Source of the DNA: Massalongia carnosa
Lineage: Eukaryota
Assembly (NCBI GenBank): GCA_965645245.1
Contig: OZ287087.1
Location: forward strand, 372,001 to 436,000
DNA: 64,000 nucleotides
Direction of reading: 5' to 3'
The position numbers were made by a program, and so were the translations under genes. Within the stretch, counting starts at the first letter, position 1; every line of letters begins with the position of its first letter. Positions 32,731 to 64,000 of the stretch are shown here, piece after piece. Under the pieces are notes generated by a model. It had not been told where the DNA came from. It was given only the letters and a program-made list of their open reading frames with translations, and did not search any database.

Positions 32731-33652
32731 GGCGGAATGATAAGAGGTTTTTATTTGGCTTCCAATGGAGGATGAGTGTGTTCGATGAGATGGAGTTCAG
32801 AGAAGCAGTCCTTGAACTGTCAAGCCCTCCGCGCTGGGCAGATAGGCAGGGCGTACCACCTTGCGATACTCGTAGCCTTGTGCGGGGTACTTACATCTTG
32901 TGACCTTTCTCTCAACAAGCAACACACACCGTCTTTACCTTCTTAACCAAAGGTATCACACATCCTGAACGTTCATTGTAAAGGGCCGGGGGCACGGCTG
33001 CAGGGAAACGAAAGAGAGAATGTAAAGAAGTCGGCAAAAGCCGAGTCGAGTCGAATTAGCAGTCGCTGTGAATTCCGCTCTAGTCGTGATCAGTAGCTTG
33101 GCCACCATCTTTATCGTGATTAATACGAAGAAGACCGAGATTGCTATTCTGTAAGGGCTTTCCATCACCGCCTATTATCAAAAACTTTAGAGGCCTAGAG
33201 GCCTACAGTCCGCCATAAGATAGGCTTCGGCAGCAACGTCTCGTAAACACTAATTACGATTCAGAGTACAAACTGATATCGTCTAGATGGGAACCACGGA
33301 TCCTTGAGCCCAACTGTGAGAGTGATAGCAATTTGCCATGATGCCCACACAATAGGGAAGTATATCTACGACAGCAGGACGGCGAGAAAGAAGCCGGTTT
33401 GCGAAGCCATAGATTGGTAATATCTGAGTCAAACGAAAGATCTTGTTAAACTACGATGATGCTACTGAGTCAGCTACGGAGTGGATCCCTGCTTGTCTAT
33501 ACTCTCGGGGCCGGTTTCACAGTTGCACTGATATGAGCATGCAGTGCTATCGTCGTCATAATATAAAGAGAGATGTTGTCGCGCGGCCCAATTAGTCCGA
33601 ATGCCGGAGAGAGAGAGAGAGACGGTGGAGGTAGTGGATCGAGAACGGTACC

Positions 33653-34987
33653 TTAGTCATCGTCTTCATCGATGACTTTCTCCTCCACCACCTCTCGAAT
33701 AGTCACAGCCATTTCGCGTTCTTTAGCTGCTGATAGCTTTCCTGCAAATGAACTTACAGTCGTGTCGCCTTGCACGATGGGCTCGACATGCAAAATATCC
33801 CCTATCTCAAGCGCAAGCGCACGAATCACGCTCCCGCGCATCCACTGACCCGGTGTTCCCCAGATTTTTCCCATTTGGATTTTTTGGGAATCGTTTTCAC
33901 AGCCGTCCACCATAAACCGACGACGGCGAAAAAGTGTAATTAGACAAAGAAAATAAAGGTTTCGCTTGAGAGGTCGAGCTTCGGTTTTAAACGTCAGTCG
34001 TTTATTGTTAAGATCCCGATAGAGTGGACCGTTCAAGAAGACGTGCATGGACAACAAGGACTCATCTAGCACGACCAACTTCAATTCGTTCATCGATTCG
34101 TCATCGGGCACGATCACAATTCGGCCATCATCTAAATGCCCCTCGATGCTCGAATATAGAATGAGCCCGTTCTTGAAATCCCAGATGGCTTTCCAGCCTT
34201 CGTCCAAAGGCAATCCGAAAATATAGGAGGCGTTAAACTCTCCAATGCCATATGGCACAATGTGTGCCACTGTCGTGTGAGCTTGTTCATGCCAGGCGTT
34301 GGTAACGGGACACCACATCAACGGCAACGGCAGATTCGTCTTCGGTGCGTCGTATTCGGGTGAACCCTTCTTCGGGGTAGAGGCATTGCGTACCAGATTT
34401 CGGAACTGTTCCTGGTCGTTGTTATTGCGAGCTCCCGGCTTCTTGAACTTGGCCCCGGCAGGCTCGGGGAGACGATCCACCAATGCCCCCAGGTAAGCCT
34501 CTCCGATGCGCGCATGTGTAGGATGGGAGAGAATTCCATATTCGAGTTTCACGCGATTTCGGGCCAAAGCTGCCCGTTCTTGGAGCAGAATGGCGTCGAG
34601 CTCTTCGATGCCGCTAAGAAGTCGTTTCATCGTCGGCTTGTCTATGGATTTGGTTTCGTTGAGCTTCCTCAACACATTTCGGCAAGATTTGTGATGCATC
34701 GCTAAATCTTCCAACAGCGGCTCTCGATTTGCGACATACTCTTTGGCGCGGCTTGGGCTAAATGACTCAAGAAGCAACTGCGATGAAGCGGACGCGGTTC
34801 GTATTCTCTCATTCAAACGATCCCTCTCATCCGCCATTTCGCTGCTTAGATGGCGAAACCCAGGTTCAGGGGATGTTGAGAAGCGTTCTAACGGGTCTAC
34901 AAGGGCCATCGTGAGGCTCTCTCGCTGTTTGCGGCGTTTCTCAAGTCTATTACCGGCGGAGCTTCCTTTCACGGTCGGTGAATCCAT
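33653..34987 (-). CDS. Fungal HNH-family endonuclease domain protein (444 aa)
   Basis: N-terminal coiled coil; FRNLV, WCPVT, AHIVPY, NGLIL..IE..LDDGRIVIVP, DLNNKRLTF..RP..LYF. Confidence 0.8.
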   Translation of the reverse strand: MDSPTVKGSSAGNRLEKRRKQRESLTMALVDPLERFSTSPEPGFRHLSSEMADERDRLNERIRTASASSQLLLESFSPSRAKEYVANREPLLEDLAMHHKSCRNVLRKLNETKSIDKPTMKRLLSGIEELDAILLQERAALARNRVKLEYGILSHPTHARIGEAYLGALVDRLPEPAGAKFKKPGARNNNDQEQFRNLVRNASTPKKGSPEYDAPKTNLPLPLMWCPVTNAWHEQAHTTVAHIVPYGIGEFNASYIFGLPLDEGWKAIWDFKNGLILYSSIEGHLDDGRIVIVPDDESMNELKLVVLDESLLSMHVFLNGPLYRDLNNKRLTFKTEARPLKRNLYFLCLITLFRRRRFMVDGCENDSQKIQMGKIWGTPGQWMRGSVIRALALEIGDILHVEPIVQGDTTVSSFAGKLSAAKEREMAVTIREVVEEKVIDEDDD

Positions 34988-36334
34988 CTCTGAATTTCTT
35001 AATAAGAAGCTGAGAAAATAATAGAAGTTGAAAAGAAGAAAAAAGAATTCAAGAGGTTTATTTGTGAGATTTTCGTCTCAGTATAACCAACAATGAGAAG
35101 CCCAAGAGTTGTTTGCAGACGAAAGCTTTCTACTTCTACGTGAAAAAAATGATCGTTTCGTAAAAGGAGTGCAAGAAGATCTAATACTTGCCTCAATTCA
35201 AATATGATTAGAATCGGTTCGATTCCTGTTAACGTTGACCTATTGAGAGGATGGAAGTTTAGCTCTCTCTAGTTATCATGACCAATAGTGCCGAAGTCTA
35301 ATTATTTTGATCTCATGTGATGCGTGCCTTAGATTGTTCTAGTTGGAAAAACAAAAGTCATAACACATGCTACGCAGAAATATCCTTCTGTGATTCGTCA
35401 AAAAAACAATACTCTTAAAACCCAGTAAAGAATTGACACATGACGAGAATTTTAATCAGCAATCTCATTTAAAGCTTAAGGATTAGTTTCCGAAAAATTG
35501 ATATTATGTGAATGTTTGCAACGGTTCAATCAGACTCTATCTACTGGATACCTACCTATTCATGAAGAATCTCAAAGACGCAGTTGTAGGTGAAGATATA
35601 CACCAGGTATGACTAAACATAACACTTCCCTAAGTAATCAGGTTCTGTATCTGTGTCCTATACAGTCATGCTTTAACTGTGTTCTGCTTAACCTTCGGTC
35701 TATGGTTCGCAGAGTCGCAATCACGCTTCGAGGACCGAGGTAAGTATACCATGCTCGACGGTCAGGATAGTCAGGTATCTAGAAGGTCAGGAGGATAGAA
35801 AGATAGGAAGTAAGATAAAAATGATCGAACTGTAGCTCTTGTTTTTTTAATTTTTATTAAAAGTTTTTAAAAACATTCTATGCTAAATGACGGTTGATTT
35901 GTAAAGTGTCGCTTAGATGACGTTAAGCCTTGGTCATTGAATTTGTCGAATGTTCTAGATTGCTTTATAGTCAATGCGATCATCTGCAATTGGAGTTTTT
36001 TGTAAAACTATTTTTAGTATTAAAAATCGCAGACTGCGAAGACAGATTTAATTTATGTGTCAACATGACGAGTTCTGATATAAAACTCCCTTCTATGACC
36101 CTTATCGGTGCCGTTACCTTCGCTTGCGCTTGGGGGGGCTTTTAATTGGATGAATTGATTTGAATGCTTGAATTTGATTGGGCATGGGAACGACACAGGT
36201 CAGCCCGGGCAGGCCTAGGCACGTGACTCGGGGTCGGTGCTGAGGTGAGAACCTCATCTTCTAGGCCCGAGGCGTCTGCTGACGCTCAACGATCCGATAG
36301 ATGATGCCCGACGGCAGTGCCCGACGGCGATGAT

Positions 36335-37498
36335 CTAGATGGAGGTGCCCGGCGGCGCTCCGGATCGATGCCCTGGTTGACCTGTACGCCCAATGGAATG
36401 CCCAATTGAGTAGGGGTAGGAGTTTGTAGGATTCGTCTCGGCGACGACAGCACGTGGGACTGCCAGAGGGATGCCTTTTTGAAAACTGAGGTTCAAATTG
36501 AATAGTGAGGCCTGGGACGTCTGAAAGTATAGCTGAAACGCGTTTGATGACCATCTTCCGAGTCTCTGAATACTCTCATCCAGCATCCCGTGGTCGGCGG
36601 CGTGTTGTGCTGCTCCTTTTCTGAAGCTGTGTCCCGAGTATGCCGAGTCGTTGATGCCGGCGGCTATCAGTCTCTTTTTCAGGGATGCTATGACGGAGGC
36701 TCTGGTGAATGCGGTGCCGAGACGAAAAAGCGGGGATGTAGATGGCTGAGGATCATTTCTGAAAAGACGCCGTAGTGCTGTCACGGGGCAAGTGCTCTCA
36801 TTGGTCGCTGCCAGCACTATCTGAACTCCTGAGTGATTTGTGTCTGTTTTGCTTCTTTTGAGACGTAATGTCGCGTATTGATCGTTCTCGGCGAATGAGA
36901 TGTCACCTCGTGTAGGTTTCAATCTCTGAAAAGATGTCTTCTTACGATCGGCGACAGTGTAGGTGATTTCCCCGAGTCTGAGGAACCCTGCCCATGCAAC
37001 TTTGAATGTCGCGTCGATGTTGAGGTCTTCGGCCGAATGAGCGGGAATACTGGTGATTTTTGTCAGTAATTCTTTTGAAATGGGTAGGCGTCTTCTTTTT
37101 GTCTGAGAAAAGATCCTTTTCCCCCTTTTCAGCATCAATTGAAGTCTCGGCCCCTCGAATGGGGTGAGGCCGTATCCTCGGTCTACATGGTATGATCTGA
37201 GGCCGGCGAGGTAGCTCGCTGCCGTCTCTGGTTTTATCTTTCCCTGCTTGGGTGTGCCGCCCCCGTATAGTCGACCGGCTAGCCATTCCTCGAGGGACTC
37301 GGTTGTTGCAGGCCACGACGTGCGTCCCGTCGTCGCGCAGAATGCCTCGTATGAGTCGATCGCCGTCCCGTACCCTTTTCTCGTGTCCGCCGAGTGTCCG
37401 TGCCAGACGAGGCGTTTTACCAGGGCTGACCCTGGTGTGGAGGATAGGTAGGTGGAGGGAGGTTCATCGAATTGTATGGGTTCTGCCAATGAGGGCAA
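36335..37498 (-). CDS. Tyrosine recombinase of YR retrotransposon
   Basis: Catalytic set intact: FLRLGE, RSKTD, CPV, GHSFRKG, LGRWSS, QLY; ORF begins at TTG and overlaps pol by 82 nt. Confidence 0.93.
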   Translation of the reverse strand: MPSLAEPIQFDEPPSTYLSSTPGSALVKRLVWHGHSADTRKGYGTAIDSYEAFCATTGRTSWPATTESLEEWLAGRLYGGGTPKQGKIKPETAASYLAGLRSYHVDRGYGLTPFEGPRLQLMLKRGKRIFSQTKRRRLPISKELLTKITSIPAHSAEDLNIDATFKVAWAGFLRLGEITYTVADRKKTSFQRLKPTRGDISFAENDQYATLRLKRSKTDTNHSGVQIVLAATNESTCPVTALRRLFRNDPQPSTSPLFRLGTAFTRASVIASLKKRLIAAGINDSAYSGHSFRKGAAQHAADHGMLDESIQRLGRWSSNAFQLYFQTSQASLFNLNLSFQKGIPLAVPRAVVAETNPTNSYPYSIGHSIGRTGQPGHRSGAPPGTSI

Positions 37499-39120
37499 AA
37501 GTTAGCCAATCTTTCATCATCAAAACGTGACAGGGCATCTGCTAGTCCATTGGAAGTGCCACTGATCCATTGACAACGTAGTACGATGTCCCACTTTGCA
37601 GCTATGGACAGTATTTCTCGTAGAGGCGCGTTGGCCGGTCCCTTGAGGGTTAGATTCGTGAATCCTGTGTATGCTGTGTTGCTGTCGGTAAAGACAAGGA
37701 TCTGTCGATGTCGCCATGTCGGCGCCCATTTCTGAAGGATTAGAAGGATAGCCTCGACTTCTCGGACGTTTATGCTCGGTGATTCTTCCTGATTGAGGAC
37801 TAGGACTCGGGCCCTACATGCGTTTTTTTGATTCACGAGCTCGTTGTCTTGTTGAAAATAGCCTCCGAGACCCGTGAGGCATGCATCCGTATGCACCTTG
37901 ATCGTGTCTCGTATTGACGTCTCGAAGAAGACAATACCGTTGAAGTGCACTAAAAGTTTGTTCCACCAGATGAGATCCTGTCTGACCCATGTGGGAATTC
38001 TTCTTTTGACCCGACGATGACTGCCCGAGGGAAATGAGGCTATAAAATTCCAGAATAATCGTAAGAAGACTCGGCCCAATTTGACTGCCTGTGCGCAGAA
38101 GCTTAGGAAGCCCGCTATTGACTGCATGTCGCCGAGGCTGATTGTCGTCTCGTTTAGTGCCTTTGTAGTGATGATTCTCGCTTTTTCCAGCTTGTCCGCT
38201 GGCAGACGAATAAGACTGTTGATGGTGTCGACCTCGAGTCCGAAGACTGTCGCTGTCGTTCTCTCGGCGTCTTTTGAGTCGTTTCTCGGGATGCCGAGAA
38301 TGTCGGTGAGAATGTTGTAGGCTTTTGTTTCTTGGTGGAATCGTTCTGACGATGTCTCGGATGGGAAAATTGCAACGAAGTCGTCTAGATAGTGATGTAA
38401 TCTCCATTGTAGAAAGGATTCCAAAATCCAATGAAAGCCTTCCGCAAAAAGATTGAAGATGAACGGGGCCGTCGACAGTCCGAACGAAAGGCATGTCTCG
38501 GTGTAGAATTCGTCATTCCATCCGAAACCCAGAAGCCATTGATGATGAGGTGCGACGGGAACGTTTCGAAAGGCGTCTTTGACGTCTCTTTTCACTATGA
38601 CAGCACCTTTGCCCGCTGACAGAATCAATTGAATAATGTCGTCGAGTCTGGCGTATTGTAATTTGGATGCCTCTTCTGGAATGTTGTCGTTGACTGATGT
38701 TTGATTGGGATGAGACAGATGATGAATGCGTCGCCATCCTCCGTCATGTTTCGGGACCAAGCCGAGGGGGGAGGCCACAAATGGCTGACTCGGGGCGGCT
38801 ATTCGTCTGACTCGGCCCTTCCTGAGGTCCTCTTGAAGCTTATTCTCGATCGTTTCCGGGTCCTCATTCGCTGATGTCAGATTTTTTTCGATCCGAAGGA
38901 TGTCTGTGGGGCCTTCGTATCCGATTTGTACTCCGAAACGAAGGATCATGGGCAGATGGACTCGGACGGGGCCCGGATACTCTTGAAGTAGGGTTGCCCA
39001 TGCGGACGGTACGAGGGGAGATGGGCTGTCTTTCAAACGCTGACGAGATGCGTCTACGAGTTGAAACGAAGGGATTGTATTTGGTCTGATTGGTGCAGGT
39101 AAGCAGGGATGGGACGTCAT
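37417..39120 (-). CDS. Reverse transcriptase/RNase H (DIRS type)
   Basis: SPLGLVPK, RRIHHLS, DVKDAFR, LSFGLSTAPFIF, YLDD, HTDAC, TDS, ADALSR. Confidence 0.95.
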   Translation of the reverse strand: MTSHPCLPAPIRPNTIPSFQLVDASRQRLKDSPSPLVPSAWATLLQEYPGPVRVHLPMILRFGVQIGYEGPTDILRIEKNLTSANEDPETIENKLQEDLRKGRVRRIAAPSQPFVASPLGLVPKHDGGWRRIHHLSHPNQTSVNDNIPEEASKLQYARLDDIIQLILSAGKGAVIVKRDVKDAFRNVPVAPHHQWLLGFGWNDEFYTETCLSFGLSTAPFIFNLFAEGFHWILESFLQWRLHHYLDDFVAIFPSETSSERFHQETKAYNILTDILGIPRNDSKDAERTTATVFGLEVDTINSLIRLPADKLEKARIITTKALNETTISLGDMQSIAGFLSFCAQAVKLGRVFLRLFWNFIASFPSGSHRRVKRRIPTWVRQDLIWWNKLLVHFNGIVFFETSIRDTIKVHTDACLTGLGGYFQQDNELVNQKNACRARVLVLNQEESPSINVREVEAILLILQKWAPTWRHRQILVFTDSNTAYTGFTNLTLKGPANAPLREILSIAAKWDIVLRCQWISGTSNGLADALSRFDDERLANFCPHWQNPYNSMNLPPPTYPPHQGQPW

Positions 39121-39165
39121 GAATTCAGCTATTGAAGCTATTCTACTGCCTCCTGCACCAACCCC

Positions 39166-40179
39166 CTATTTCTTCGTTGGGCATGTCTTCTGGCCATGCC
39201 CAGCCGCGCCGCACGATTTGCATTTGTGCTGTCGGTAGCACGACGGCCAGGTGCAGGTGCCGCTGTTGTACTTGTCGCAGATTTCCCCCGCTGCCTTCTC
39301 GGCCCTCTCGGCCCTGTCTCCTCTCGGGGTCGGTCGTCGGGACGGCGGGGATCGTGAGCGGCGACGGCGTAGGACTGTGAGGGGGGTGCAGAATCGAGCT
39401 TGGAATTCGTCGGGCATTTTCCATTGGGATGCGTCGGATGGCTGAGACGCGATGATGTGGGTGTGGGTTTCGATGGCGAGGGGGAGGACTGCTTCCTGCC
39501 ACTCGTACACCTTGGCCAGCGTGAGGATTTTTCCGTGGAATGCCGACATGGTGGCGTGAAGCTGTTGACTCGATTTCCCGAAAAGACTGACCATGATCGA
39601 GGTGTAGTTGATGAAGCTCTCGGTCCAGACGTCATGAACTGTCTTTCCGAAATCTTTGTAGGTCCCGGATGCCTTTCTCAACCTCAAGGCGCCGTCTTCG
39701 ATGCCGATGCGGTCTTGATCCTTGTATGACTCGTATTGCATGCCGTGCATGTGTCGGAGGCGGGAGAGGTTGATGGCTTTGAATTTATTTGAAAAGAGCT
39801 TGATGATCTCGTCCTGTGGTAGGCCCGCGAAACGGGGTGCTATGCTTCTTACTTCGAGAGGGATCTCACCTAGGTCCTCGTCGTCATCGCCGACGACACG
39901 ACTCGGCTTGCCAGCAGGAATGACGGCCGCTATTCGGGCGTCAGATTCTCGGCGCATGCAGTCGATTTCTAGCTGCATTTTTTCCACCTCCTTCTCGGCG
40001 ACCAATGCCTTGGACTCGGCAATTCTAGCCTCAGCCTCGGCCGCCTTCGCTTCCGCCTCGGCTTTCTTCTTTTGTAGGGCGAAGATTTGATTGGATTGGG
40101 CCTGCGTCAATCCGACAATCTCCTGGGGGTCGGGGACTATGTCGTCCATCAAGGTGCTTTGGGAACGGGTGTTCGTCAT
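39166..40179 (-). CDS. Gag-like protein of YR retrotransposon
   Basis: ATG at 40179; coiled coil; C-terminal CDKYNSGTCTWPSCYRQHKCKSCGAAGHGQKTCP Cys/His fingers. Confidence 0.85.
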   Translation of the reverse strand: MTNTRSQSTLMDDIVPDPQEIVGLTQAQSNQIFALQKKKAEAEAKAAEAEARIAESKALVAEKEVEKMQLEIDCMRRESDARIAAVIPAGKPSRVVGDDDEDLGEIPLEVRSIAPRFAGLPQDEIIKLFSNKFKAINLSRLRHMHGMQYESYKDQDRIGIEDGALRLRKASGTYKDFGKTVHDVWTESFINYTSIMVSLFGKSSQQLHATMSAFHGKILTLAKVYEWQEAVLPLAIETHTHIIASQPSDASQWKMPDEFQARFCTPLTVLRRRRSRSPPSRRPTPRGDRAERAEKAAGEICDKYNSGTCTWPSCYRQHKCKSCGAAGHGQKTCPTKK

Positions 40180-40407
40180 TGGGAGGTAGGGGCACCGAGA
40201 CAACGTGAGGTCGACGACGAGTCAGTGAGATTGGAAAAGCAGCAAGCACTGACAGCGAGGTAGGGGCACCGAGACAACGTGGGGTCGACGACGAGTCAGT
40301 GAGATGGATGAGGCCGAGTGAGAAGAAGTGAATGAGGAAAGAATTTTCAGAGGGTGATTCTTAATTTACTTTGACTCAGGGGCCTCACGTGACATAGAAC
40401 CATCTCA

Positions 40408-40601
40408 TCTGTCCTTTGTCCCTTTCATCTATTTGTGTTTGCTTTAGAAGGTCGTTCCGATGCGTTCCTTTCAGTCCTTTCAGACCTCCGTTGATTGCCC
40501 CTATGATTGCTAAAGGGTTGAGTAACGGAAGCGGTTAGTGCGCCGGCAGATGCCGTACTTTTCTTTGATTGGCCTTGGGTGGATGTGGTTGAACCGTGAC
40601 A
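40408..40601. repeat. Truncated LTR of family S2
   Basis: Reverse complement of about 20497-20692; ends GTTGAACCGTGACA. Confidence 0.85.
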
Positions 40602-41595
40602 TTCTGTAGAAAATTCAATTCTTAAACTTTATTCTAATTCTTTGTATCCTCCCTCTCCATACTCTTCGAGACTTTAGATTTCGAGCTTCAAGGTGATTTG
40701 ATAGCATGTTTTCCGACAGTGAATATGCAATTTGCTATTTCGATGAGCATATCTGTGCCAAATGTAAAAGGAATTGAACTTACAATTTGCTCCAAGAACG
40801 GCGGCCAGGATTTATAAAAACGACCGTTCTCGCGCACAATTACCACCACATCAGCGTCACAAGCTTTCCGAGCTCGTAAGCCTTCTTAAACAAGCAGTGT
40901 TATCTTCTTCGCATTATCTAGCTTTGCATTTTGGTATCGTTGATCATAATACTGTGTTTTAATAATCTTTCGAGATTTTTTAAAACTATTAGCTCGTAGA
41001 GCAATGTGTATAGTGAGCAAGGAGGGTCTGAAAAAGCATTTTACAATAAGACTGGGGGGGGGGTCCCGAAAACGATTTCAATCACCGGGGTGTGGAAGAA
41101 GTCGAGAACGACAAATACTGCGCTAAAGCAACGCCCATGTATGCGCGTTAACCCGTATTCATTTAGTTTGAGGCGTATTAGAGATACTGTGTTATAGAGC
41201 CATCTCTTATTCCATTTGAAAGATTCTGATCGTCAAATGGATACGCCTGTTTGAAACGCGTAATTGATGTAATAATAACTACATTTGCTTGACCACTCAG
41301 GTTTAGCGTGAGCCTATACTGCCCTCTACAGTGCCTCTTAGAACCACTCTATCCCACGACTCTTTCAAGAGTAACTACACCGAATTGGCCTCGTGCTAGG
41401 TTGCCGAAGCCATGTACAAATTGCCCACCATTCTTATCAGTGAACAGACCTATCCTGAGGGGACCGAAACCTCCCTTACGTACCCGCCGGCGACCTGAGC
41501 GCCAGCTACCTCCGCGGTGCTCCTTCACTCCGTCTCTTCGTCGCGAATTCGTAACAAGCAACGTATATATCTAAAATAGCTAAACTCCTTCATTT

Positions 41596-42460
41596 CTACC
41601 CAGTCCTCTGCTTCTGTTGTTCTGATAATGACTGCATCAAAACATTCGTCAACTTGCTAATTTGCTCTTTTAATCCTTTATTCTCTTCCTTCTCCTGCCG
41701 GTGCAAGTCAATAAGCTCTGCGTGTCGTTGCTTGCTCTCCTCCCTCTCTCGAGCGAGCTGTTGCCTAAGCCAGTCAATCTCGTTCTGAAGCATGGTCGTA
41801 GGTTTTAATCTTGGTTTTTTGGATCGCTCCGTGCCCTGAGACGAAGGGGCGATTTCCGCCATCTCCTGCGAATCGATCTGTTCAGATTCTAGATCTGTGC
41901 TGTCAAAGGAATCGCCGAGTGAAAGCTGAGAGGGTAGATTTGAGCCTTGAGAGGCTGTGTCAGATGATATTTTATCGATAGCGGAGCATATGCATGAATT
42001 CGAAATAAATGTTTTTCGTAAATCGATAGGCCGTCCATTTGTCCTTCCCTTCTTCGCTTGTGAAGTCAAAATTCTTGATGGGATGACGATAGAATTTGGT
42101 TGCACCGTCCTTGATTAGAGCGTAATGACCGTAAATTCTTACGTTATTCCCATCGTGCGAAATGGAGAACGCGATAATTTTTCGATGAAGCTCCTCTTCG
42201 CATTTCGCAAGCTCGACAAGCTTTACAATACCTCCTACTGCTATGCTCATGCTGTGAGCATTCTGTTTATCAGCGACATCAATGTCCCCAATCCCACATT
42301 TCGCTTCACAGGCGAAAAACGGAAAATACATTCTCCATGTAGCTAAGAAAAGGAAAGATAGTTGACTGGGACAAGACTTCCAATGTAAGGCTTTAATTTT
42401 TGAAGCTGGATGTCGGTGAACGTGGATTCGCTAAATCCCACGCATCGATCAGGTCGATAT
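41596..42460 (-). pseudogene. Fragment of conserved fungal PD-(D/E)xK-like protein (RPD..GF / YFPF..CEAK family)
   Basis: RPDRCVGF, MYFPFFACEAKCG..DVADKQNAHS..AFSISHD..VRIYGHY..KWTAYRFTKNIY; frameshift before ICSAID; C-terminal coiled coil; 5' part degraded. Confidence 0.7.
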
Positions 42461-42752
42461 TCATTGAAAGACCCTCGATATGTAGCCAGTAGTTCACGTG
42501 AACAATGCAATCCAGTCCCTGCATTTGGAAAGTGTTATTTGCAACCCATCATGAACTGTGTTAGCGTAAGTGCTCACCTGCATGAACTCCTGACCGTTGA
42601 CCTGCCATAATCTTATTTAGCTTGAAGAATCCCATTGCTTCGGCGTACCTGAAGCCTGGAATACATCTTCAATTTTTGTTACTTTCACAGAGAAAACCCT
42701 TGGAAAGCTCAAATATCTCCGCGTCACGACTGAAAAATCCACTTGCCCCGTA

Positions 42753-43628
42753 ATGCTTTGCCATTATCCTTCAGACGGCTTGAGAATGTATAAATCTGAT
42801 ATTGCTGCGAGGTTTGCTGAATCACAACCCTATGGCTGGAATAATAGTACCTTCAATCGTCCAAATCAAGCTCGGACATTACCTCCTCTTCAACAAGTCT
42901 TCAAACACGGACAGGCAGGCCTAAACACTCTTTTGCTGCCCTATCCTTCTTCAAACCAGTCAGAGGAACGAAAGCCACGCCCTATTAATGTTCAAAACTT
43001 CATCAATCCTGGCAATGGTGAAAATCCTGTAAAAATTGGTAAAGTGCCTTTGCAGCCTGCCTCTTGGGGCGGCAGCGCCAGCATCCATCACTCTTCCTAT
43101 GAGCAGGCCAACCGCACTGAACCGACACATGCACCACTTTTAGATTCCATAGTTCGACCTCAGTCTTTTCTCTCCAAATAATATCCAGCGTCTGGCCCCG
43201 CATCTGCATCATCACAAACGACTTTTGGTTTAAAAGCCTTCGAAGATCCCACATTAACGAGAACAGCGCAGAGCCATTATCAAATGATGACGTTTGATAC
43301 GAAGCATGGTCCGATTCAGATACCTATTGACGTGCAAGCTACTTCAAAAGTCGCCAACGAGAAACGCAGCCGGAATGCCAAGGCCGCTCACAGTTTTCGC
43401 CAGCGCCGAAAACAGAATGAGTTGGAGGCTAAAGAGAACATTGACAAGTTGAGGGCAAAAATACGCAAGGTAAAAGAGGAAAAGGACCACTATCGTAATG
43501 AGAGAGATTACTTTCGGGACGTGGCATTTCGCAATCATCTATCAATCGAACCGCGGCCGCTTTCGCCCGAGCACAAACGGTATGCCAGTTATAGCGGAGT
43601 AGATCTTTGCTCATTCTCAAGCGGCTAA
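42753..43628 (+). pseudogene. bZIP transcription factor with single in-frame stop
   Basis: ORFs 42753-43181 and 43284-43628 share a frame, separated only by TAA at 43179-43181; basic region EKRSRNAKAAHSFRQRRK then heptad repeat. Confidence 0.75.
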
Positions 43629-45454
43629 CGGTGAGGCAGTCCACTATCGACAGTGAATCATTCCGACCCACGCGTCCGTACAAGTACTTGAGTGTTATAC
43701 ACTGACCTCGCTCAAGTCGGTAATACAGAATTCATAAGACCTTCTCCTACATATCCTCGGGTTCTTCAATCCAGCTCAAAATCACAACATTATTCCTAAG
43801 CGCTTGAGCGAGTAATAGTGACATTCCTTTCTTTATTATTCGCATCCCGAGATACATGATTGGCATTCGATCACTGTTCACGTGGGTGGCATTTGTCAGG
43901 CAAGTGGAGGCGATGATTTGTACTTATACCCAAAGACTGAAGGGGAATGTGTGCGGGTCAGTGGAAACACCAGGCGTGGTAGATTCACAAGGTTCTTACG
44001 ATTTTGAGTGCTTGATATTCTATGGAGAATCAAGTTTTGAACAGTTTGAATCGACCAACTTTGTCTTTCTTCGGGCACATACTCCTGATAACGCCTGACG
44101 GGTTCAGATTTCAAGAAGTGTCGCCTCATGCCACGATAATTTGATTCTCACAGCCTCCATTGAAGAGCCTTAACTTTGAGCAAGCAAAGTATGTAGTTCA
44201 GTCAGATTAGCACCTGCCGGTCGGGTCCGTTGGTGTTCACATTTCGCATTAGATGCTATGGGTCATGTTTGATTCTAGGTAATCATGAATATATTCAATG
44301 CTCGTTGCATAACCCTCCTCCTGCGGATCTTATTAAAGATCAGTATGATCTCCTGGTCTTCCTCTTCATCCTCTGGTAAGTCTTGATGGTCTCACATCGT
44401 GAAAAGAGCGACATAGAGGTGACAGCTCTGAGAAGATCATAATCACTAGCAATCTTGATCGTCTGGGACATGATACCGCTAAAAGAGATCGGGCATTAGG
44501 AGGTTCGGTATGGGGTTTAGGGATAGTAGGTATGTTCAAGCATCCGTAAGTTATTCGTCATTTTTTTCGATCGAGTCCGCAGGAATAGACGTGATTCGTA
44601 CTCTGGCGGGCAGTACATTTGGTAAAGGTCAAAGCGAGAGGCAGTCAATGAGGAAGGCACGTTGGGGTCGATAGGTGATAGAATAAAAGAAGGGATAAGG
44701 CGGAGTGCCTGAGTCACTTCGGCGAAAGATGAATCCGTCCCTTATCTGATGTCCATCGCGTCATCGTCGGTGTCGTCGCTCATGAGCAACATCTTTAAGG
44801 ATCAATTGAAATGCTCTAATCTGACCCATCCCCGCGTTCCCAATGACCCCCACCTTCTAATCTAGGGATACTTAATGGTAAATCTCCCAAAATGAGAGAG
44901 TATTCATCAATTCACCGACAATCTCCAGCTTCGGCCTCCAAACCATGGCCTCGTGCACTCTAAACCGAGGCGTTCTGGATGCCTCAATGTTTAATAGAAT
45001 TAAGCTTGGGAAGCGGTAGATGGATTGCATTGCTAGAAAGTCCTTTCCCCACCCCCGAGTCCTCCTCCGTCTCGTTAGAAATGGATCTCGCCTGAGGTCT
45101 ATTGGTTCGTTCTTGAGGTCTGGAGTACTGCACTGATAATGCAATTATGGTTCGTCTTGCCCTTTTCGCTATAGAGTAAATTGGTGCTCGTGGCTTCTCC
45201 AGGCATATTATCTCGACTCTCCACTGTCTTCGAGCGGCGTGCCCGCGCATAAATTCCACGGGGGATCACAACGAGGATATTCGATTGGCTCATGACACGA
45301 TGCTTCGCTTCAAGGATGATGTAAGACAAGAGGTCAAGGTGCCGTGTTCCCAGATATGTGGGTATAAGAAGCTCGACTTCCCCTCAGACTTTCGCTTTCT
45401 CTTCATCTTCCTTTCCCATTTCTTGAATCAGATTTCCGTCGCGGTTCATTTAGC

Positions 45455-50108: not shown

Positions 50109-53100
50109 TGTCGGACCGTTCTTATTGATCTGGAAAATGATGTTCTCCTTGTCTATCTAAACTGGAAATTCTAGCTAGCTATATAGACCATTTCGCCACA
50201 TTCTTTCATAATCTAGATATCTTCCAGCCACTTCTATTTACTAATAGATCATTAGTGATCCGGAACCTATGCGAGGTACAATGCTTTGAAATCATTGAGT
50301 ATTAGAAATCAGATATATGGCATAGAAAGAAATAGCATCTGAAAGATCGAGGCCTCGGTTATTAGTCCGAAATCACGTGCTTTTCCTTCAACAGGATCTT
50401 ACTTCGGGAATTGGCTTGAACAACGGTCTATTAATATCGACATACCCCCCCAGATTTAGCATACTAAGCTGAAGCTGCTTCCTGACCTTGATTAGCCAGT
50501 ATGACTGATATGTCAGTCAAATGCAGCTGTTTGATGAAATCGTCAAGTTTCTGACGAGGTAAGACCTTGGTAAATCCGTCGGCAGGCATTTCCGCTGTGG
50601 GCATCCAACTGACGTTTATACGACCAGCTTGAACTTCTTGCCTTAGCCAGTGACGATGTATATCCACATGCCGAAGCTTAGTATCTAGCTTCAACATCTC
50701 TTTATCTAGGATCCTGAGGGTCTGGCGATTATCGCACCGAATGTGCAACTTTTCCATGGGATTGAACCGAATGGCTTGAAAAAACCGTTTCCACCACATA
50801 GCTTCCTTGGCGGTCCGAGACAGGGCTAGCAACTCGGCTTCAGTGCTCGATGTGGTGACCGTGGCTTGTTTAGCTGCTCGCCAGTCTATTGGTCCACCAT
50901 ACAGCTGAAAAAGGTAACCATCGGAGCTTCTTCGAGTCAACTCATCATCAGCAAACGCTGCATCGCTAGCACACATCAGAATGTCAGTTTTCTGATGACC
51001 GTTATATTCTATAGCCAGGTTTTTAGTCCCATTTAGATAAGCAATAACCCGATCGGCCGCAGACAGATGATCCGGGCACGGGTTTTGTAAGAATTGAGCT
51101 AATTTTGCAGTTGCAAATGCTATATCGGGCCGGGATATTACCGCTGCGAAGTTCAATGAACCTACCCGTTGCTGGTACGCATATATACGTTGACTGTCTG
51201 CTTTTTGCTCGTTTTCATTGGCTGGAGGCACCACTGTCAGTGGTGTTTTCGCGGTTTCCCCGTGCTGATTAAATTTCGCAGCCATTTTGGTAATGTATGA
51301 GTCCTGACATAACCATATCTTCTTATTTTCTCGGTCTCGGGTAATCCTTATACCGAGAAACCATTTCAATTCCCCTAGAGCATGCATTTCGAATCGTTTC
51401 AGGAGAGCTTTCTCAAATTCTTGTAATTTGTCCGAATTATGCTTCCTGCATATGACCACAATGTCATCGACATAGAAGAATAGGATAATCCACTCATTGG
51501 CAAATAGACAGTTGACCCCTGGGACTGGCGCTAGTCCGAGTTCCTCTAGGGCCATGGTTAGGAGCTTATACCATAGAATCGGTGCTTGTTTTAATCCGTA
51601 CAGAGCTTTTCTAAGCTTCCAACAGTATCCGGGCTTGTCAAAACCTTCTGGACACTCACAAAAGATTTCCTCATCAATCGGGCTATTTATGAAAGCACTG
51701 ACCGCATCATACTGATATCAAGGTCAAATGCAGCTGAAATAGCCATTAGAGCTCGAAACGTTCTCGCTGCCAATGTTGCAGCATACGTATCTTGCTGAGT
51801 CATCTGAAGATCTCCTCGTACACATAGACGGGCCTTGAATTTCTCAACATAGCCGTCGGTGTCATGCTTATACTTAAATACCCAGGTGAGTGGTATCCGG
51901 TCCTGTCCCTGAACTTTTTCCACTAGCTCTTACGTACCACGCTTTTCAAGCTCGGTGAGCTCTTTGATGGCCGCTAGCTGGAATTCCTGCGAAAAACGGT
52001 GATGGAGCATCTGCCTCCAATATCGGGGCTCCACCGGGATCTCATCCCGATGGAATTTCTTCAAGGTTTCGACCTGTGGCCGTTCTAGGCCGACCGAAAA
52101 CGCTGCATGGAACGGGGTTAACTTGCTGACTGATGCCAGCGCAATTGCATATGCCTGTTTCCTTGATCTAGTGTTCCTGGCAATTGATTCATCCGTTGTC
52201 TCTACCACCCGAGGCGTCCGTCTCGGCCTAGCCGACTGTCTCGGCTGGCTCGGTCCGTCCTCGGTTGATTGAACACCTGGCATTCCTTGAACGTCCGGCT
52301 CGGAGCTTATTTGAACGTCCGATTGCAGAGTCTTTTCCAAACCATCACGCTCCGATGTCTTTTCAGGGGTAGGTAAGTGAGGATTGTTTTCCATATCGGT
52401 ATGAGGAAACATCGTCTTTTCTGACGTTTCTGTTTCACTAGGTTGATTGGTTGTTTGGTCCAATCTCGGACCTACCTCCTCATCGTCTTGCTCAATCATC
52501 ACTCCTGCAAAGGATGTTTCGGGCACTTCCAACACCTGAATCACGTTTTCCACGGTTATGTTTAATAAATGTCCTATATCGAGCTCATTGGGCTCATAGA
52601 ATCTTGTCTTATCAAACATTACATCCCTGGTCCGGATGACTTTCATACGGCTGGGAATCCATATTCGAAAGATGTTAGTGGAGTCGTACCCCACCAGGTA
52701 TCCAATAAAAGCCCTTGGTTCGAGCTTCTCTTTCCTGGGAATCACCTGATTAAGCGGGAACGCTCGACAACCATACGGCTGCAGGTGAGATAGTTTCGGT
52801 TTTTCCCCGGTTAATTTATCTATTGGTGTTTTCCACCCTAGTATCTTCTTCGGGGTCCGGTTATTTAGATAAGCAACCGTTTTGAATATTTCTGGCCACA
52901 TACTAGCTGGCAAATTTGCTGCTATGCGCAGGGCCCGCGCTCGGATCACCAGTACCCCCCCAGATCGCTCGGTTTGACCGTTTTGTGCTGGAGTATATGG
53001 GGCCGATCTTTTGGTGGTGATACCTCTCATTTTCATGAACTCGGCGAATTCTAAGCCGAGGGTTCGCTCGTCGTCTGTTCGAAAAAACCGAACGGTCTGA

Positions 53101-55551
53101 TCGTATCTAGTCTTGGTCATTTTCAGGAATTCCTTGATCACCCCTAGAGCATCATTTTTTCGAGTATGGGTGTAGACGAAGTCCATACTGGTATAAAAAC
53201 ACCTGAAGTGGCTCACCCAGTTGTCCCCGTTGTATGCTTCAGTCAGCTGAATAAGGTCATACCCTACTCGACCGAGCGGAAAGTTCGCTGGCTCTTCCTG
53301 TCCCGAACGTCTCGAGATCAGGTGATGGGCTTTGGTCAGCGAGCATGTCTTGCATTGCATCGTATTCGGTGCTGTCTCGAGTACTGTTACCTTAACTCCA
53401 TCTACCCCCTTTTCGAGGTGAGAAATTTTTTCCGGTCCAGGATGACCGAGCATCTCGTGCCACTCTTTTCCCGTCGCTATCAATTCCGGTTTCGGACTGG
53501 TACTGGCCGCAAATGCTCTATGCGACCTTACCGTTGGTGGGTTGTCTTCTATCACCCAATGGCCCCCTATTTGCTTGGTGCGGCAGAACGTCTTTCCCTT
53601 CTGATGCAGATGAGAATGTTCGGTGTCCCAGTGAACCCCCTTCTTTGTTAGCTTGCTTAGGCATACTAAATTGGTGAAAAATCCTGAGGATAGCGCCACA
53701 TCTAGAAGCCTGATTGGCACCGGCCCATGAGGTCCTTGTGCCGTGATATCTACCGTTCCATATCCATCTATGCTATAAACGGTTTTTCCGGCCATGAGCT
53801 TGTCATCAGTGTTTGCTATACGCGTCAACTGAAACCGCTCCGGATCATTGCATACATGAATGTCTGTTCCGCAATCCAGGGTCCAACAGTTGACCAACCT
53901 ATGTGGCTCCGGTTCGGAAGCAACTGCAAACGTTGAAAACGATCTAGGTGGTGCGGCAGGCAAGATCGAGACTGATGATCCGGCAGGCACTATCGAAACT
54001 GCAAATGCTGCAGTATCGGATTTTTCTGAAGACGATTTCTCTTCCTTTCCGACTTTTTCGACTTGTTTTGCGTGCTTATCTCGGACCGACTTGATGATCT
54101 TATCTAGCCGATGATTCTTAGCTAGCTTTTCTTCTATTATTTTCTCAATGCTCTTGTCCGGGGTCCACCCCTCTGGCCTCAGGTCCTTGAGCAAATAGTA
54201 GCAATCCTTGAAGCGGTGCTTCTTGCCACATATGCACTTCTTCTCGGAATTTCCTTGGTCCGAGTTAGATCCCTGAGCTGATTTTTGACTCATTGTCGAG
54301 TTCGATTTTTCTTGATCTGATTGGTCAGATCCTTGAAATGTTGTAAATGCCGAATGGGTAGCCCCCTTGCTATCTAGGGCCCTGGCGGTTCGCAAATGAT
54401 TCCGGAATTCTTCCAGAAGATCCCTTATCGAGAAATCTTCCTCATTCCGATGAATTTTATACTGTAATATGGCCTCTCTACCGGCCACAAACGAACCGTC
54501 CACTGTCCTTAGCGCATTCAAGAAATCATAAATGCATCTATGTCCCTGAACGTCCGGAATTTTCAGTCTATCCGCTTCTGCATAGACTTTCTCCCATTCC
54601 AACAACCAGTGATCCAGTTGCTGACTCTTGGGGGCACGTTGTAGGTCCTTATATTTCCGAATAACTTCGAGTTCTCGGATCCGGTCCGTCGGTGCAAGCC
54701 TCTTCTTTAGAGCTGATAACTTCTTATATCGAGTCCTGTCCCCTGAGATATAAAAAATTGGTCCGATCCACGGTGGTCAATATATATGCTTCCAGGTTTT
54801 TTAGGGCTTCGGTCTTCTCCCGATACGTACGCAAGTCTTCTCTATGATCCTCTCTTCGCAATATCAGATCCCGTCGCTGTCCCTCGGTTAAGTCCTCGGA
54901 TGACACGGCACCTGCTTTCATGGAAGAGAAGGTAGGGGTAATGGGTCTGATTGGCTCGTCTGGCTCAGGTTTCGCCAGGTCCACATACTGCTCGATTCCA
55001 CCTCGCTTGGCCATGGACTCCACGATAAGGATCCATTCATCCCAGTCACCGGGCTCCTTGAGGACTACCACGGTTTTCTGACTAGAAGCGGGCAAGGTAG
55101 AGAAAGACATCTTCTGTTCGATTGTCCAAAGAAGATGGAAGAAGTAACAATAAAGGTCAATAAGAACTTGGGGATACTGATCGATGAATGCAGCGATTAG
55201 GAAGCCGGGCTCATAACTGTCGGACCGTTCTTATTGATCTGGAAAATGATGTTCTCCTTGTCTATCTAAACTGGAAATTCTAGCTAGCTATATAGACCAT
55301 TTCGCCACATTCTTTCATAATCTAGATATCTTCCAGCCACTTCTATTTACTAATAGATCATTAGTGATCCGGAACCCATGCGAGGTACAATGCTTTGAAA
55401 TCATTGAGTATTAGAAATCAGATATATGGCATAGAAAGAAATAGCATCTGAAAGATCGAGGCCTCGGTTATTAATCCGAAATCACGTGCTTTTCCTTCAA
55501 CAGGATCTTACTTCGGGAATTGGCTTGAACCACGGTCTATTAATATCGACA
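50109..55551 (-). mobile_element. Full-length Ty1/copia retrotransposon (copia-C), recently inactivated
   Basis: 334-bp LTRs 50109-50442 and 55218-55551 (3 differences), TSD GGAGG, PBS GTTATGAGCCCGG, PPT GGGGGGG; gag zinc knuckle CICGKKHRFKDC, protease LDCGT, integrase WHEMLGH..CKTC..QNGQTER, RT YVDD, RNase H; lesions: frameshift about 54727, stop 51930, frameshift about 51715. Confidence 0.97.
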
Positions 55552-61600: not shown

Positions 61601-62324
61601 CAGTATCTAGGCCAAAAGTCTGCGGCCCCGCACCCCACCAACATCTCAATTATTCTGTTCAATCAAGAATTAACCACGTCATGATTGCTAAAATGTCTTA
61701 AAATTTTATATAATGATTACATAAATACTAAATAAGAATTCCCCCAAAAATCGATTTTTAATATTTAGTATACCATCCTTCCGACGCTATACACGCTTTT
61801 ATCCTCCTATTCATGCTCTCTATTAACCTCCTCATCATTTTCACATCTATCAACGTCCAGGCTTCTTCTCACGCTTTCCAAAGTACCTCACGAACAGTTT
61901 CATTACTGCCGATCACCAAATCTATGTTCGAATTGACTAGATAGACGAGCTTTTTGAGCACATACCAAACGTGCTCGATGGGATTCAAATTAGGTGAATA
62001 GGGAGGCCAATCAATGACCTCTATGCCGTTCTCATTGAACCATTCCATCACCTTTTAGCCTTATATATATGTGCGTTATCCTGCATGAAAATGAGGCCCG
62101 GTTGCCAAATTCCAAGCAGATTATCGTTCAATAATTGCAGATATGAGTTCGCCGAGTACCTCATCTTCTTCGCAGCAAAATCACAAGCCAATTTGTAAAG
62201 ATCTGACCTGTCATCTCCCCAAAAAATTGCTCAAACCATGACACTGACTCCTTTGCCTTTGGGGACAGGCTGTATCATCTCTTTATTCTATTTTTCTTTC
62301 GACAATCTGAACACCCACTAATGC
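61601..62324 (-). mobile_element. Tc1/mariner 3' fragment truncated by second YR retroelement
   Basis: TA|CAGTATCTAGGCCAAAAGT terminus; FMQDNAH, WPPYSPNLNPIEHVW, GWYTKY. Confidence 0.8.
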
Positions 62325-64000
62325 TATTTTCCTAACCCCTTTTCCACCGAGCACTCATCTAAAGTAATTCGGCTAGGGCGAAAGGTAATGCCGGGACCGA
62401 GTGGAGGCAGGCCGTGGATAGCCAACGAAGGCCGAAGGAGGATGATGTCGAAATAGTTGGACAAGGAGGGGAGAGAAAGGGCATAAATAGGTGGCCTTTT
62501 GGCACTCTTCTCCTCATCATCACCATTGATTCGGAGTTCAGCACCAAAAGGTCTTTTGAAAGTCTTTCCCGAATTAAAAACATCTGTCAATCACCCACCC
62601 TCAACCCCATCATTCTAAATCACCTCCATTTCTCATCCTATATTACCTCCCACACTGAGCCCATCATGCCTTTCCATCGCCCTCAAAGAATCACCAAGCC
62701 TTCCGCCCACTCCGGAAACACCTCCGGGCCTGGTCAACGTCTCACTCGTTCCACCCGACCCCCTAGGGGAGGGGCCATAGTTCCAGAAACACAGCCTCCT
62801 CCGAACACTCAAGGTTCGGAAGGAACACTTCGGGGCGATGTGATAGACGTCCACCGAACACCGGAACCAACCCCGGACCTGCTGTTGGACCTCAGGGCCT
62901 AGCAGGAGGCCACGGCGACAGCCCTCAGGCAGGAGGAGACCCGTCACCTTCAAAAGCAAATCGCTGAGAACTTGGCGGCCATTCAGCGCATAAGGGAAGG
63001 AAACACAGTCCCCGAGGGTAGGCAGGAGGCACACACTCCCCACCCGAACCAGCTACTGCCCGCTGAAACCGAAGGTACGGATCCATGTCTCCTTCCTCTA
63101 ATTATCGAGTATCCTGCCATAAACAGCATTTATTTCCGACAAATTCTGAACAACAAATTCGATCCCATAAATATTTCCAAGCTCTGCACCGATGTAGTCT
63201 TAATCAAACCAACTGTCAAACGAGTGACCTGGCCAAAGGATACGAATTAATACAAGAAGAAGACGATGCGTCACCAGGAGACATCAAGGGACTACCTCAC
63301 CTGATTCGCTGCCTCGGGGTGTATTGGCAGGTCTTGCTTCATTTGGCACCATCCGGAATAAAGGACAGTCTTTGTAGGGTCTTTCAAATCTATCAGGACC
63401 GCTTGCTGTTACATTACACCATCTACACTTGGGAGTCAGTACGAGTGTTTCATATAGTCTTCCACAGGGGTCGGGTGTACCTGGGAGTGAACGACCCGGC
63501 CGGATGGAGGAGAATCGACACCACCGTCGAAAACATGTACCTTACTCGACGGACACCTAACTTGTCCATGACGGGAGGTACCACCAAGCAGCACCCGGGA
63601 TCAATTCCGGTAGGCGGCTCCACTGAACCAAAGCCTATGTCCTGCAATCGATACAACGCAGGGCGGGAATGTAAGGACTGCAGGTACCCTCACGTCTGTA
63701 GTCTCTGTTTCGGCCATCACATAAAAAACAACTGCCCCAAGGCACATATCAGCAACCTAAATTTCATGTCAACAGGTAGACGAGATTGACTAGCCGGCCC
63801 ATTTGATCATATCGCCGAAGGGTTCCCCTATCCGCTGATAGATAAATCAGCAATCGTACCCTCAGGGCCTCTAAGAAAAGAAGGCTGGGAACTTCACCTC
63901 ATGGGTCATCCGGACAAAATTTACAAACAGACCATTCACGATATAATCGTGTACGGGGCCAAAATTGGTTACACCGGCCCAGATCAGTTCATTCTAAGCA
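62325..64000 (+). mobile_element. Second YR (DIRS/Ngaro-like) retrotransposon, 5' part; gag disrupted
   Basis: gag from ATG 62666 with stop 62900 and frameshift about 63225, Cys/His fingers CNRYNAGRECKDCRYPHVCSLCFGHHIKNNCP; in-frame pol start PSGPL..W..HLMGHPD..YGAKIGYTGP homologous to first element; RT core and YR lie beyond the window. Confidence 0.8.

Follow-up and report, generated by a model that had tools for sequence, protein, structure and literature searches.

How does a retrotransposon obtain its polymerase when gag ends in a stop codon and the pol frame continues directly behind that stop without a change of frame? This question is raised by a tyrosine-recombinase (YR) retrotransposon, here called element 2, at the end of a 64,000-nt stretch of DNA from Massalongia carnosa (assembly GCA_965645245.1, contig OZ287087.1, positions 372,001 to 436,000 of the forward strand; hereafter the window, with positions counted from its first letter). 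The junction reads ...CGA GAT TGA CTA GCC GGC..., and the proposed readthrough site (63787..63793, plus strand) consists of the gag stop TGA at 63787-63789 and CTAG at 63790-63793. The list of open reading frames places the ORFs 63067-63789 and 63790-63999 in one common frame, and the latter is open for 70 codons to the window end. The coordinates and ORFs thus agree with a preliminary description of this DNA, which had claimed an in-frame TGA-CTAG with an open pol frame behind it. We consider it likely (a probability of roughly 75%, judged from sequence comparison) that programmed stop-codon readthrough makes Gag-Pol across the Ngaro-like clade around this element.

In this proposal, element 2 would belong to a high-copy family of Ngaro-like YR retrotransposons, in which a single mRNA would encode Gag and then, past one UGA and in the same frame, Pol. 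The majority of ribosomes would stop at the UGA and yield Gag. As UGA-CUAG terminates translation only weakly, a small fraction would instead accept a near-cognate tRNA there and go on to a Gag-Pol fusion. The ratio of Gag to Pol would be fixed by readthrough, as it is in gammaretroviruses and in certain LTR retrotransposons. The layout would be clade-wide and the signal would depend on the lineage, with UGA-CUA, stop-CAR or UGA-CGN in some and a stop followed by G and a downstream hairpin in others (including element 1, a second YR element in the window). We infer the decoding step and its frequency from features that can be seen directly: the layout, its conservation, an enrichment of stop contexts, and hairpins that are specific to lineages.

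The 70 residues behind the stop (63790..64000, plus strand, cut by the window end) were assigned to a pol N terminus by their match to relatives and by alignment. Among 1.8 billion proteins they match the pol N terminus of P0026 with an E value of 6e-18, and the relatives that they match run on into RVT_1 and RNase H domains (Pfam finds RVT_1 in the longer relatives and in P0115 also an RNase H match that is weak and below the cut-off). These are the only pol residues of element 2 within the window, and its YR ORF would be positioned outside. In a 20-sequence alignment, conservation of pol begins ~5 codons past the TGA, and five invariant or near-invariant columns (L16, P27, L28, W33, and L37) all lie upstream of the first in-frame ATG after the stop (63901..63903, plus strand), which encodes residue 38 of the 70 and falls within the conserved N-terminal region. 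It had been claimed that the conserved part of pol starts upstream of this AUG, and the five columns confirm it; the proposed homology of PSGPLRKEGWELHL and PSPLVPSAWATLL is likewise borne out, as elements 1 and 2 align across both stops (BLASTP, E 0.002). A stop followed by CUAG, coding constraint downstream and a context that is kept in relatives mark a UGA-CUAG readthrough site, and all three are found here.

It should be noted that the window copy of element 2 is not intact. We aligned contigs of four public runs (three studies; one of the runs carrying the stretch is labelled a lichen metagenome) to 62300-64000 at 80% likeness. The family is abundant, with 181, 91, 166, and 1421 contigs aligned from the four runs, about one-third to two-fifths of which are at least 99% alike. 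In other copies the gag ORF (62666..63789, plus strand) is uninterrupted over 374 codons. The window copy has two breaks in it, an in-frame TAG (62900..62902) and a 1-nt deletion that shifts the frame (63226..63227), both of which are private to this copy when compared with the contigs of the four runs. In each of the four runs, the depth at 62899 (C>T) and 62900 (T>C) consists wholly or almost wholly of other letters, giving CAG, and an extra A behind 63226 is present in 100% of the covering depth (runs X1, X2, X3, and X5). With the CAG and the extra A in place, gag reads through without interruption from ATG 62666 as far as the TGA, 374 codons in all. Read from these lesions, the window copy is dead and unable to make Gag, and the signal belongs to the family. 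Element 2 as a signal carrier, as first described, therefore stands for the family but not for the window copy, whose two gag defects had been overlooked.

Given a damaged copy, the TGA might be one more lesion (from TGG or CGA) in a family whose intact members have a fused gag-pol. One of the two other lesions is a C>T change, as this would require, and seven of the seven proteins that span the junction have W at the site (see below). Against this, the contigs of other copies that could be checked retain the TGA. X1 record 8 (63725-64000) has two differences from the window and X2 record 16 (63751-64000) has one; these are the listed variants at 63737 and 63758, so both records keep TGA-CTAG, and the variant rows listed for the contigs of the four runs include none at 63787-63793, although minor copies with a different codon at 63787 may exist among 145 further rows. 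In addition, P0001 and P0165, which are gag ORFs of other element 2 copies, end in ...STGRRD at this place, families with 41%-42% identity end there as well, and none of 56 DNA loci (described below) is fused. A lesion is thus highly improbable and already largely refuted as the origin of the TGA.

The junction recurs in a second gag family. A stretch of 38 nt (63784..63821, plus strand) is alignable with this family and both of its flanks are unlike, as seen from loose ends of contigs on either side of it in X1 and X2 (only on the downstream side in X5). The upstream flank of the second family translates to NPNWTPVNRK, the tail of P0004, a gag that is 42% identical to that of element 2 and whose ORF ends in ...RKD. 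The downstream flank translates to ..FPYRLMDKL, and the third base differs from the window in each of the next four shared codons downstream. Two co-resident families thus keep ~38 nt around the TGA-CTAG alignable despite diverged flanks (co-residence is judged from P0001 and several members of the P0004 cluster, which are found on a contig of equal length, 2,104,751), and this stretch would be an extended readthrough signal if readthrough does operate across the clade.

Proteins from a wider range of relatives end and start at the same point. A search with a 311-aa query gave 266 matches at E values of 1e-3 or less, of which the best 150 were examined, and gag and pol end patterns were parsed from 165 proteins. 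Among these 165, many ORFs of the gag type terminate where the stop aligns, and pol-type ORFs start within ~10 residues past it. The gag of P0005 ends in ...AKRD, and many other gags have TPLGxR..(K/R)P(E/D) tails; the P0004 family and P0005, with gags 41%-42% identical, end at the aligned place. The seven junction-spanning proteins (P0014, P0035, P0045, P0069, P0097, P0128, and P0146) all carry a W in place of the stop, and the next residue is L in six and Q in one; each protein was called automatically on a Logan or ENA contig no longer than 10.6 kb. Because these are automatic calls on short contigs, and because no DNA locus is fused, the W is probably TGA called under a TGA=W code, a systematic annotation artefact, the alternative being a real TGG. 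The host itself might instead read UGA as sense (by a variant code or as selenocysteine), for which the open frame speaks and nothing beyond it. The window is fungal by its content (a Pkinase_fungal kinase, a copia-type element, and a Tc1/mariner remnant). Relatives have TAG (seven of 25 lineages) or TAA (three of 25) at the same site, and selenocysteine machinery is absent from fungi (PMC4207609), which together leave a sense UGA next to no probability.

Element 1, on the minus strand, is the more complete of the two elements in the window. Its gag (39166..40221) ends in TAG (39166-39168) followed by GGG, and its RT/RNase H ORF (37417..39165) is in frame with gag; the reverse transcriptase is identified by RVT_1 (Pfam, 3e-12), and the RT_RNaseH match (5e-5) scores 23.8 bits, just under the cut-off of 24.8. 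A tyrosine recombinase ORF in another frame (36335..37501) overlaps the pol end (Pfam Phage_integrase, E 0.0016, below the curated cut-off). The set of gag, RT/RNase H, and YR ORFs, with overlap of the last, is as in fungal Ngaro/DIRS elements, whose YR may be frameshifted and overlap pol, and a methyltransferase between RNase H and YR sets DIRS apart from Ngaro (PMC3783388). Pfam finds only RVT_1 and RT_RNaseH in the 582-aa pol of element 1, with no methyltransferase, protease, or DDE integrase, so that element 1 falls with Ngaro rather than DIRS. The gag of element 2 has a Cys/His zinc-knuckle region at its C terminus (63643..63738, plus strand; CX2CX3HX4C-like, as read from the translation), and that of element 1 has a homologous CX2CX4HX4C; Pfam has no family for either gag.

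If readthrough is a property of the clade, the layout should recur in DNA. We scanned metagenomes with a pol alignment, which gave 79 loci, and used 65 gag-type proteins to make a profile with which gag was sought upstream of pol. A gag was found in 56 of the 79 loci. Exactly one in-frame stop separates the gag and pol ORFs in 40 of these 56, six have both in the same frame with extra stops, 10 have them in another frame, and none is fused. Gag and pol therefore share a frame in 46 of 56. Counted as families (39 at 70% pol identity, 28 with gag), 19 of 28 have the single in-frame stop, and against an expectation of one-third the binomial probability is 2e-4 for families and 6e-9 for loci. A readthrough-based lineage of YR retrotransposons had been claimed from the window alone, and it is supported by the survey, in which the single in-frame stop is the dominant layout. 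A YR ORF is present in 54 of the 79 loci (best E values 1e-88 to 1e-90, phmmer with the element 1 YR protein) and in 33 of the 40 single-stop loci, the other seven being cut by contig ends. The closest DNA relative of element 2, L001, is 39.6% identical over 293 aa in one segment that runs through a TGA-CAT stop, and has a YR ORF downstream (E 8e-55), as do L003 and L004. Pattern scans did not add to these loci: 203 pattern matches in metagenome contigs with alignment A3, and 80 in viral contigs with alignment A4, gave none that was confirmed.

A quick tree of 56 rows, from which near-duplicates and pol ORFs of <430 aa (L001, L002, and L004 among them) were omitted, divides pol into two well-supported clades, each with in-frame stops, the signal types being intermixed. 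It had been stated that two divergent elements independently show the same architecture. The sameness is confirmed but the independence is not, since with in-frame stops in both major pol clades an old shared trait is likelier than independent origins.

The remaining loci are mixed. Most of the 16 of 56 without a single in-frame stop look decayed. Three of them (L060, L063, and L065, all of one family) differ consistently, with gag ending ..AAAAGG TAA CTG GTC.. and pol in another frame at offsets of +1, +1, and +2, and could be a frameshifting lineage or a case of parallel decay. Fifteen of the 23 loci without a gag match have <500 nt upstream. Among the eight with at least 1 kb upstream, an in-frame ORF that encodes a zinc knuckle precedes pol in L030 (TGA-CTA) and L067 (TAA-CTA), and an in-frame gag is absent upstream in the other six. 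In L005, L015/L016, L046, L048, and L069, the pol heads are open for 63-220 codons (22 in L048) with no detectable in-frame gag, which may mean that the layout differs, that gag has diverged, or that the loci are decayed.

These counts also bear on the possibility that Pol is translated separately, by reinitiation, by non-AUG or internal initiation or from a transcript of its own, the shared frame being incidental. In element 1, an in-frame AUG does occur 16 codons past the stop and before the conserved motif, and in 19 of the 40 single-stop loci a Met comes before the point where the pol profile match begins. In the other 21, as in element 2, no AUG is available ahead of the conserved region. 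Separate translation needs no common frame, yet 46 of 56 loci have one and 40 of these have no second stop, and the enrichment of leaky contexts at gag stops (below) counts against it as well. We therefore regard separate translation of Pol as unlikely.

Removal of the stop from the mRNA, with Gag-Pol made from a spliced transcript, is less probable still. A GT at 63776-63777 and an AG at 63792-63793 do enclose 18 nt, among them the TGA, whose removal would preserve the frame. An intron of 18 nt would be far below the known sizes of fungal introns, and GTAGAC is a poor donor. The junctions differ widely between lineages, with no shared splice-site motif in those viewed by eye, and splicing would leave the stop contexts and hairpins unexplained. 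Taken together, this makes splicing very improbable.

What kind of signal would readthrough use? For the stop contexts, we defined a lineage as a family plus a 7-nt context, which gave 25 lineages, and used 68 stops at pol and YR ORF ends as controls. Gag stops are TGA in 15 lineages, TAG in seven, and TAA in three. A C follows the stop in 17 of 25 lineages and in 24 of 68 controls (Fisher p 0.005). Contexts of the classes TGA-CTA, stop-CAR, or TGA-CGN, which were picked after inspection of the data from published categories of leaky contexts (summarised in PMC4132726), occur in 15 of 25 lineages and four of 68 controls (Fisher p 1e-7). The preliminary description had proposed a survey for enrichment of TGACTA at gag stops, and such enrichment was found, with four of 25 lineages against none of 68 controls (Fisher p 0.004). 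TGA-CTAG occurs in L043 and L054/55/57, and TGA-CTA in L011, L070/73/75, and L030. The signal first named, TGA-CTA(G), is thus present, but it is one of several and accounts for four of the 25 surveyed lineages, plus element 2 and its sister family.

RNA structure behind the stop follows a different distribution. The 126 nt around the element 2 stop have no significant fold (z 0.00). For the 40 loci and the two elements (37 distinct sequences together), we folded the 100 nt that begin at the stop, and the lowest z scores were obtained in lineages with G after the stop: -3.7 in element 1, -3.2 in L031, -3.1 in L007, -2.0 in L010, and -1.8 in L008. Folds of other stop-G lineages were weaker over 100 nt (L024, -1.5; L018, +0.25, the pairing partner of L018 falling beyond the folding span), and that of L035 was also low (-3.1). 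None of the TGA-CTA lineages has a significant fold (element 2, -0.6; L073, -1.5; L057, 0.0; L043, +0.2; L054, +0.5; L011, +1.1; L070, +1.2). The predicted hairpin of element 1 (39088..39163, minus strand) starts 3 nt after the TAG and has its 3' arm in the codons of the conserved PCxPAP motif. Its MFE is -38.7 with a z of -3.75 (one of 200 shuffles as low), and a second folding gave a z of -3.73 (0 of 200).

In the stop-G lineages generally (element 1, L018, L031, L007, L010/L008, and L024), the hairpin joins the nucleotides after the stop to the codons of the PCxPAP/RPNT motif. Cognate and non-cognate duplexes were compared for 21 representatives of the 36 sequences with an RPN motif (the motif is missing from element-2-like loci, which were not included). 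All six stop-G lineages form a duplex of -29 to -36 kcal/mol between the 32 nt that follow the stop and the 42 nt that precede the RPNT codons. Of 21 candidate partners, the cognate one is the best in five of these lineages and the third best in element 1; among the 15 other lineages it comes first in only two. The arms differ among lineages yet stay complementary, which argues for lineage-specific pairing rather than shared sequence. As a separate observation, the TAG/TAA-CAA family (the L025-L059 cluster, e.g., L029 and L033) has a small hairpin CCUG-ACCAAAAG-CAGG ~25 nt past the stop, with variable flanks.

The gag-pol readthrough of the gammaretrovirus MuLV uses UAG-G plus a downstream pseudoknot. 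Element 1 and the five other tested stop-G lineages resemble it in having strong predicted structure within a few nucleotides of a stop followed by G. They differ in the type of element and in the structure itself, which is predicted to be a long hairpin with a 40- to 70-nt loop. The structured class of readthrough signals is mentioned in the discussion of PMC4132726. Element 2 has precedents of the other kind: UGA-CUAG directs readthrough in the mammalian genes OPRL1, OPRK1, AQP4, MAPK10, and MDH1 (PMC4132726), and UGA-CU(A) drives it for peroxisomal isoforms in the basidiomycete Ustilago maydis (PMC4207609), so that the leakiness earlier claimed for UGA-CUA(G) has a basis in both. Element 2 has the identical seven nucleotides, and in the cellular genes, as these sources present them, a short context is enough without strong structure. 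Those genes add short C-terminal extensions to host proteins, whereas in element 2 the extension would be a whole polymerase.

Among retroelements, the nearest parallel is found in the Tf1/sushi LTR elements of fission yeasts, where Tj1, Tosmo1-3, and Tcry1 have in-frame TGA-CT(A/G) gag-pol junctions, the junction nucleotides GAA TGA CT are strictly conserved, and, in work cited there, the stop is essential for Tj1 transposition (PMC10085805). These elements are likewise fungal and have gag and pol in one frame with TGA-CT(A/G) between. Unlike them (with LTRs, a protease, and a DDE integrase), element 1, and probably element 2, has a tyrosine recombinase and neither LTRs nor a protease, and the codon before the stop is GAT in element 2 as opposed to GAA. 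What we describe is a known strategy extended to another order of elements, not a new principle. A stronger version, in which the whole clade (presumably fungal) makes Pol only as a readthrough fusion and has repeatedly swapped all three classic eukaryotic signal types (UGA-CUA(G)/CGN, stop-CAR, and stop-G plus structure), is conceivable, at slightly less than even odds.

We found no description in the literature of readthrough at the gag stop of a YR retrotransposon, in a search that excluded the original Ngaro paper (Goodwin and Poulter 2004). In the available text of a survey of fungal DIRS/Ngaro elements (PMC3783388), the terms "stop codon," "readthrough," and "read-through" do not occur and the gag-pol junction is not analysed, and the available text of the Atkins recoding review does not mention DIRS, Ngaro, or tyrosine recombinase. 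The preliminary impression that such a lineage has not been described thus holds within the literature searched, and an earlier mention is possible in Goodwin and Poulter (2004). Pol expression is poorly studied in YR retrotransposons and is usually described in terms of overlapping or frameshifted ORFs; a conserved in-frame leaky stop is a concrete mechanism that can be tested. Annotation would also benefit, because gene callers now split such elements or read the stop as W. The loci provide dozens of natural readthrough contexts, with context and structure as alternatives, for studies of termination fidelity in fungi. If the proposal is true, the clade is a natural library of fungal readthrough signals and recodes in a way that has so far gone unreported in this order of retroelements.

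Some further features of the elements and the window should be recorded. The 5' boundary of element 2 is at 62361, where contigs of the four runs have loose ends with varied flanks, and continuations differ behind 62557/62558. The 5' terminal segment between these points (62361..62557, plus strand) has 3-10 times the depth of the interior of the element and is found alone inside contigs of 10.6 and 13.4 kb; because it recurs in other contexts at raised depth, it is a candidate terminal repeat, the 3' end of element 2 being beyond the window. Within it, at 62425-62450, copies vary by inserted 7-nt units (CGAAGGC-like), which make up a short tandem repeat of variable length. Element 2 occurs only once in the 64-kb window. 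A gag variant with an internal deletion (63015-63277; 261 nt skipped, one C between) occurs in X1, X3, and X5, with a depth in X1 comparable to that of the full form, and may be a non-autonomous derivative family. For element 1, a search of 33000-44000 for terminal repeats, which in Ngaro-type elements are split and direct, found only two 49-nt direct repeats, 74 nt apart (40183-40305), at its 5' end and overlapping the gag start. A copia-type LTR retrotransposon occupies 50464-54776 (minus strand) in two ORFs, one with gag_pre-integrs, Pol_BBD, and SH3_retrovirus and the other with RVT_2 (Pfam). Directly upstream of the 5' end of element 2, at 61869-62230 (minus strand), lies a transposase remnant (..DWPPYSPNLNPIEHVW..), which we take from its motif to be of the Tc1/mariner type.
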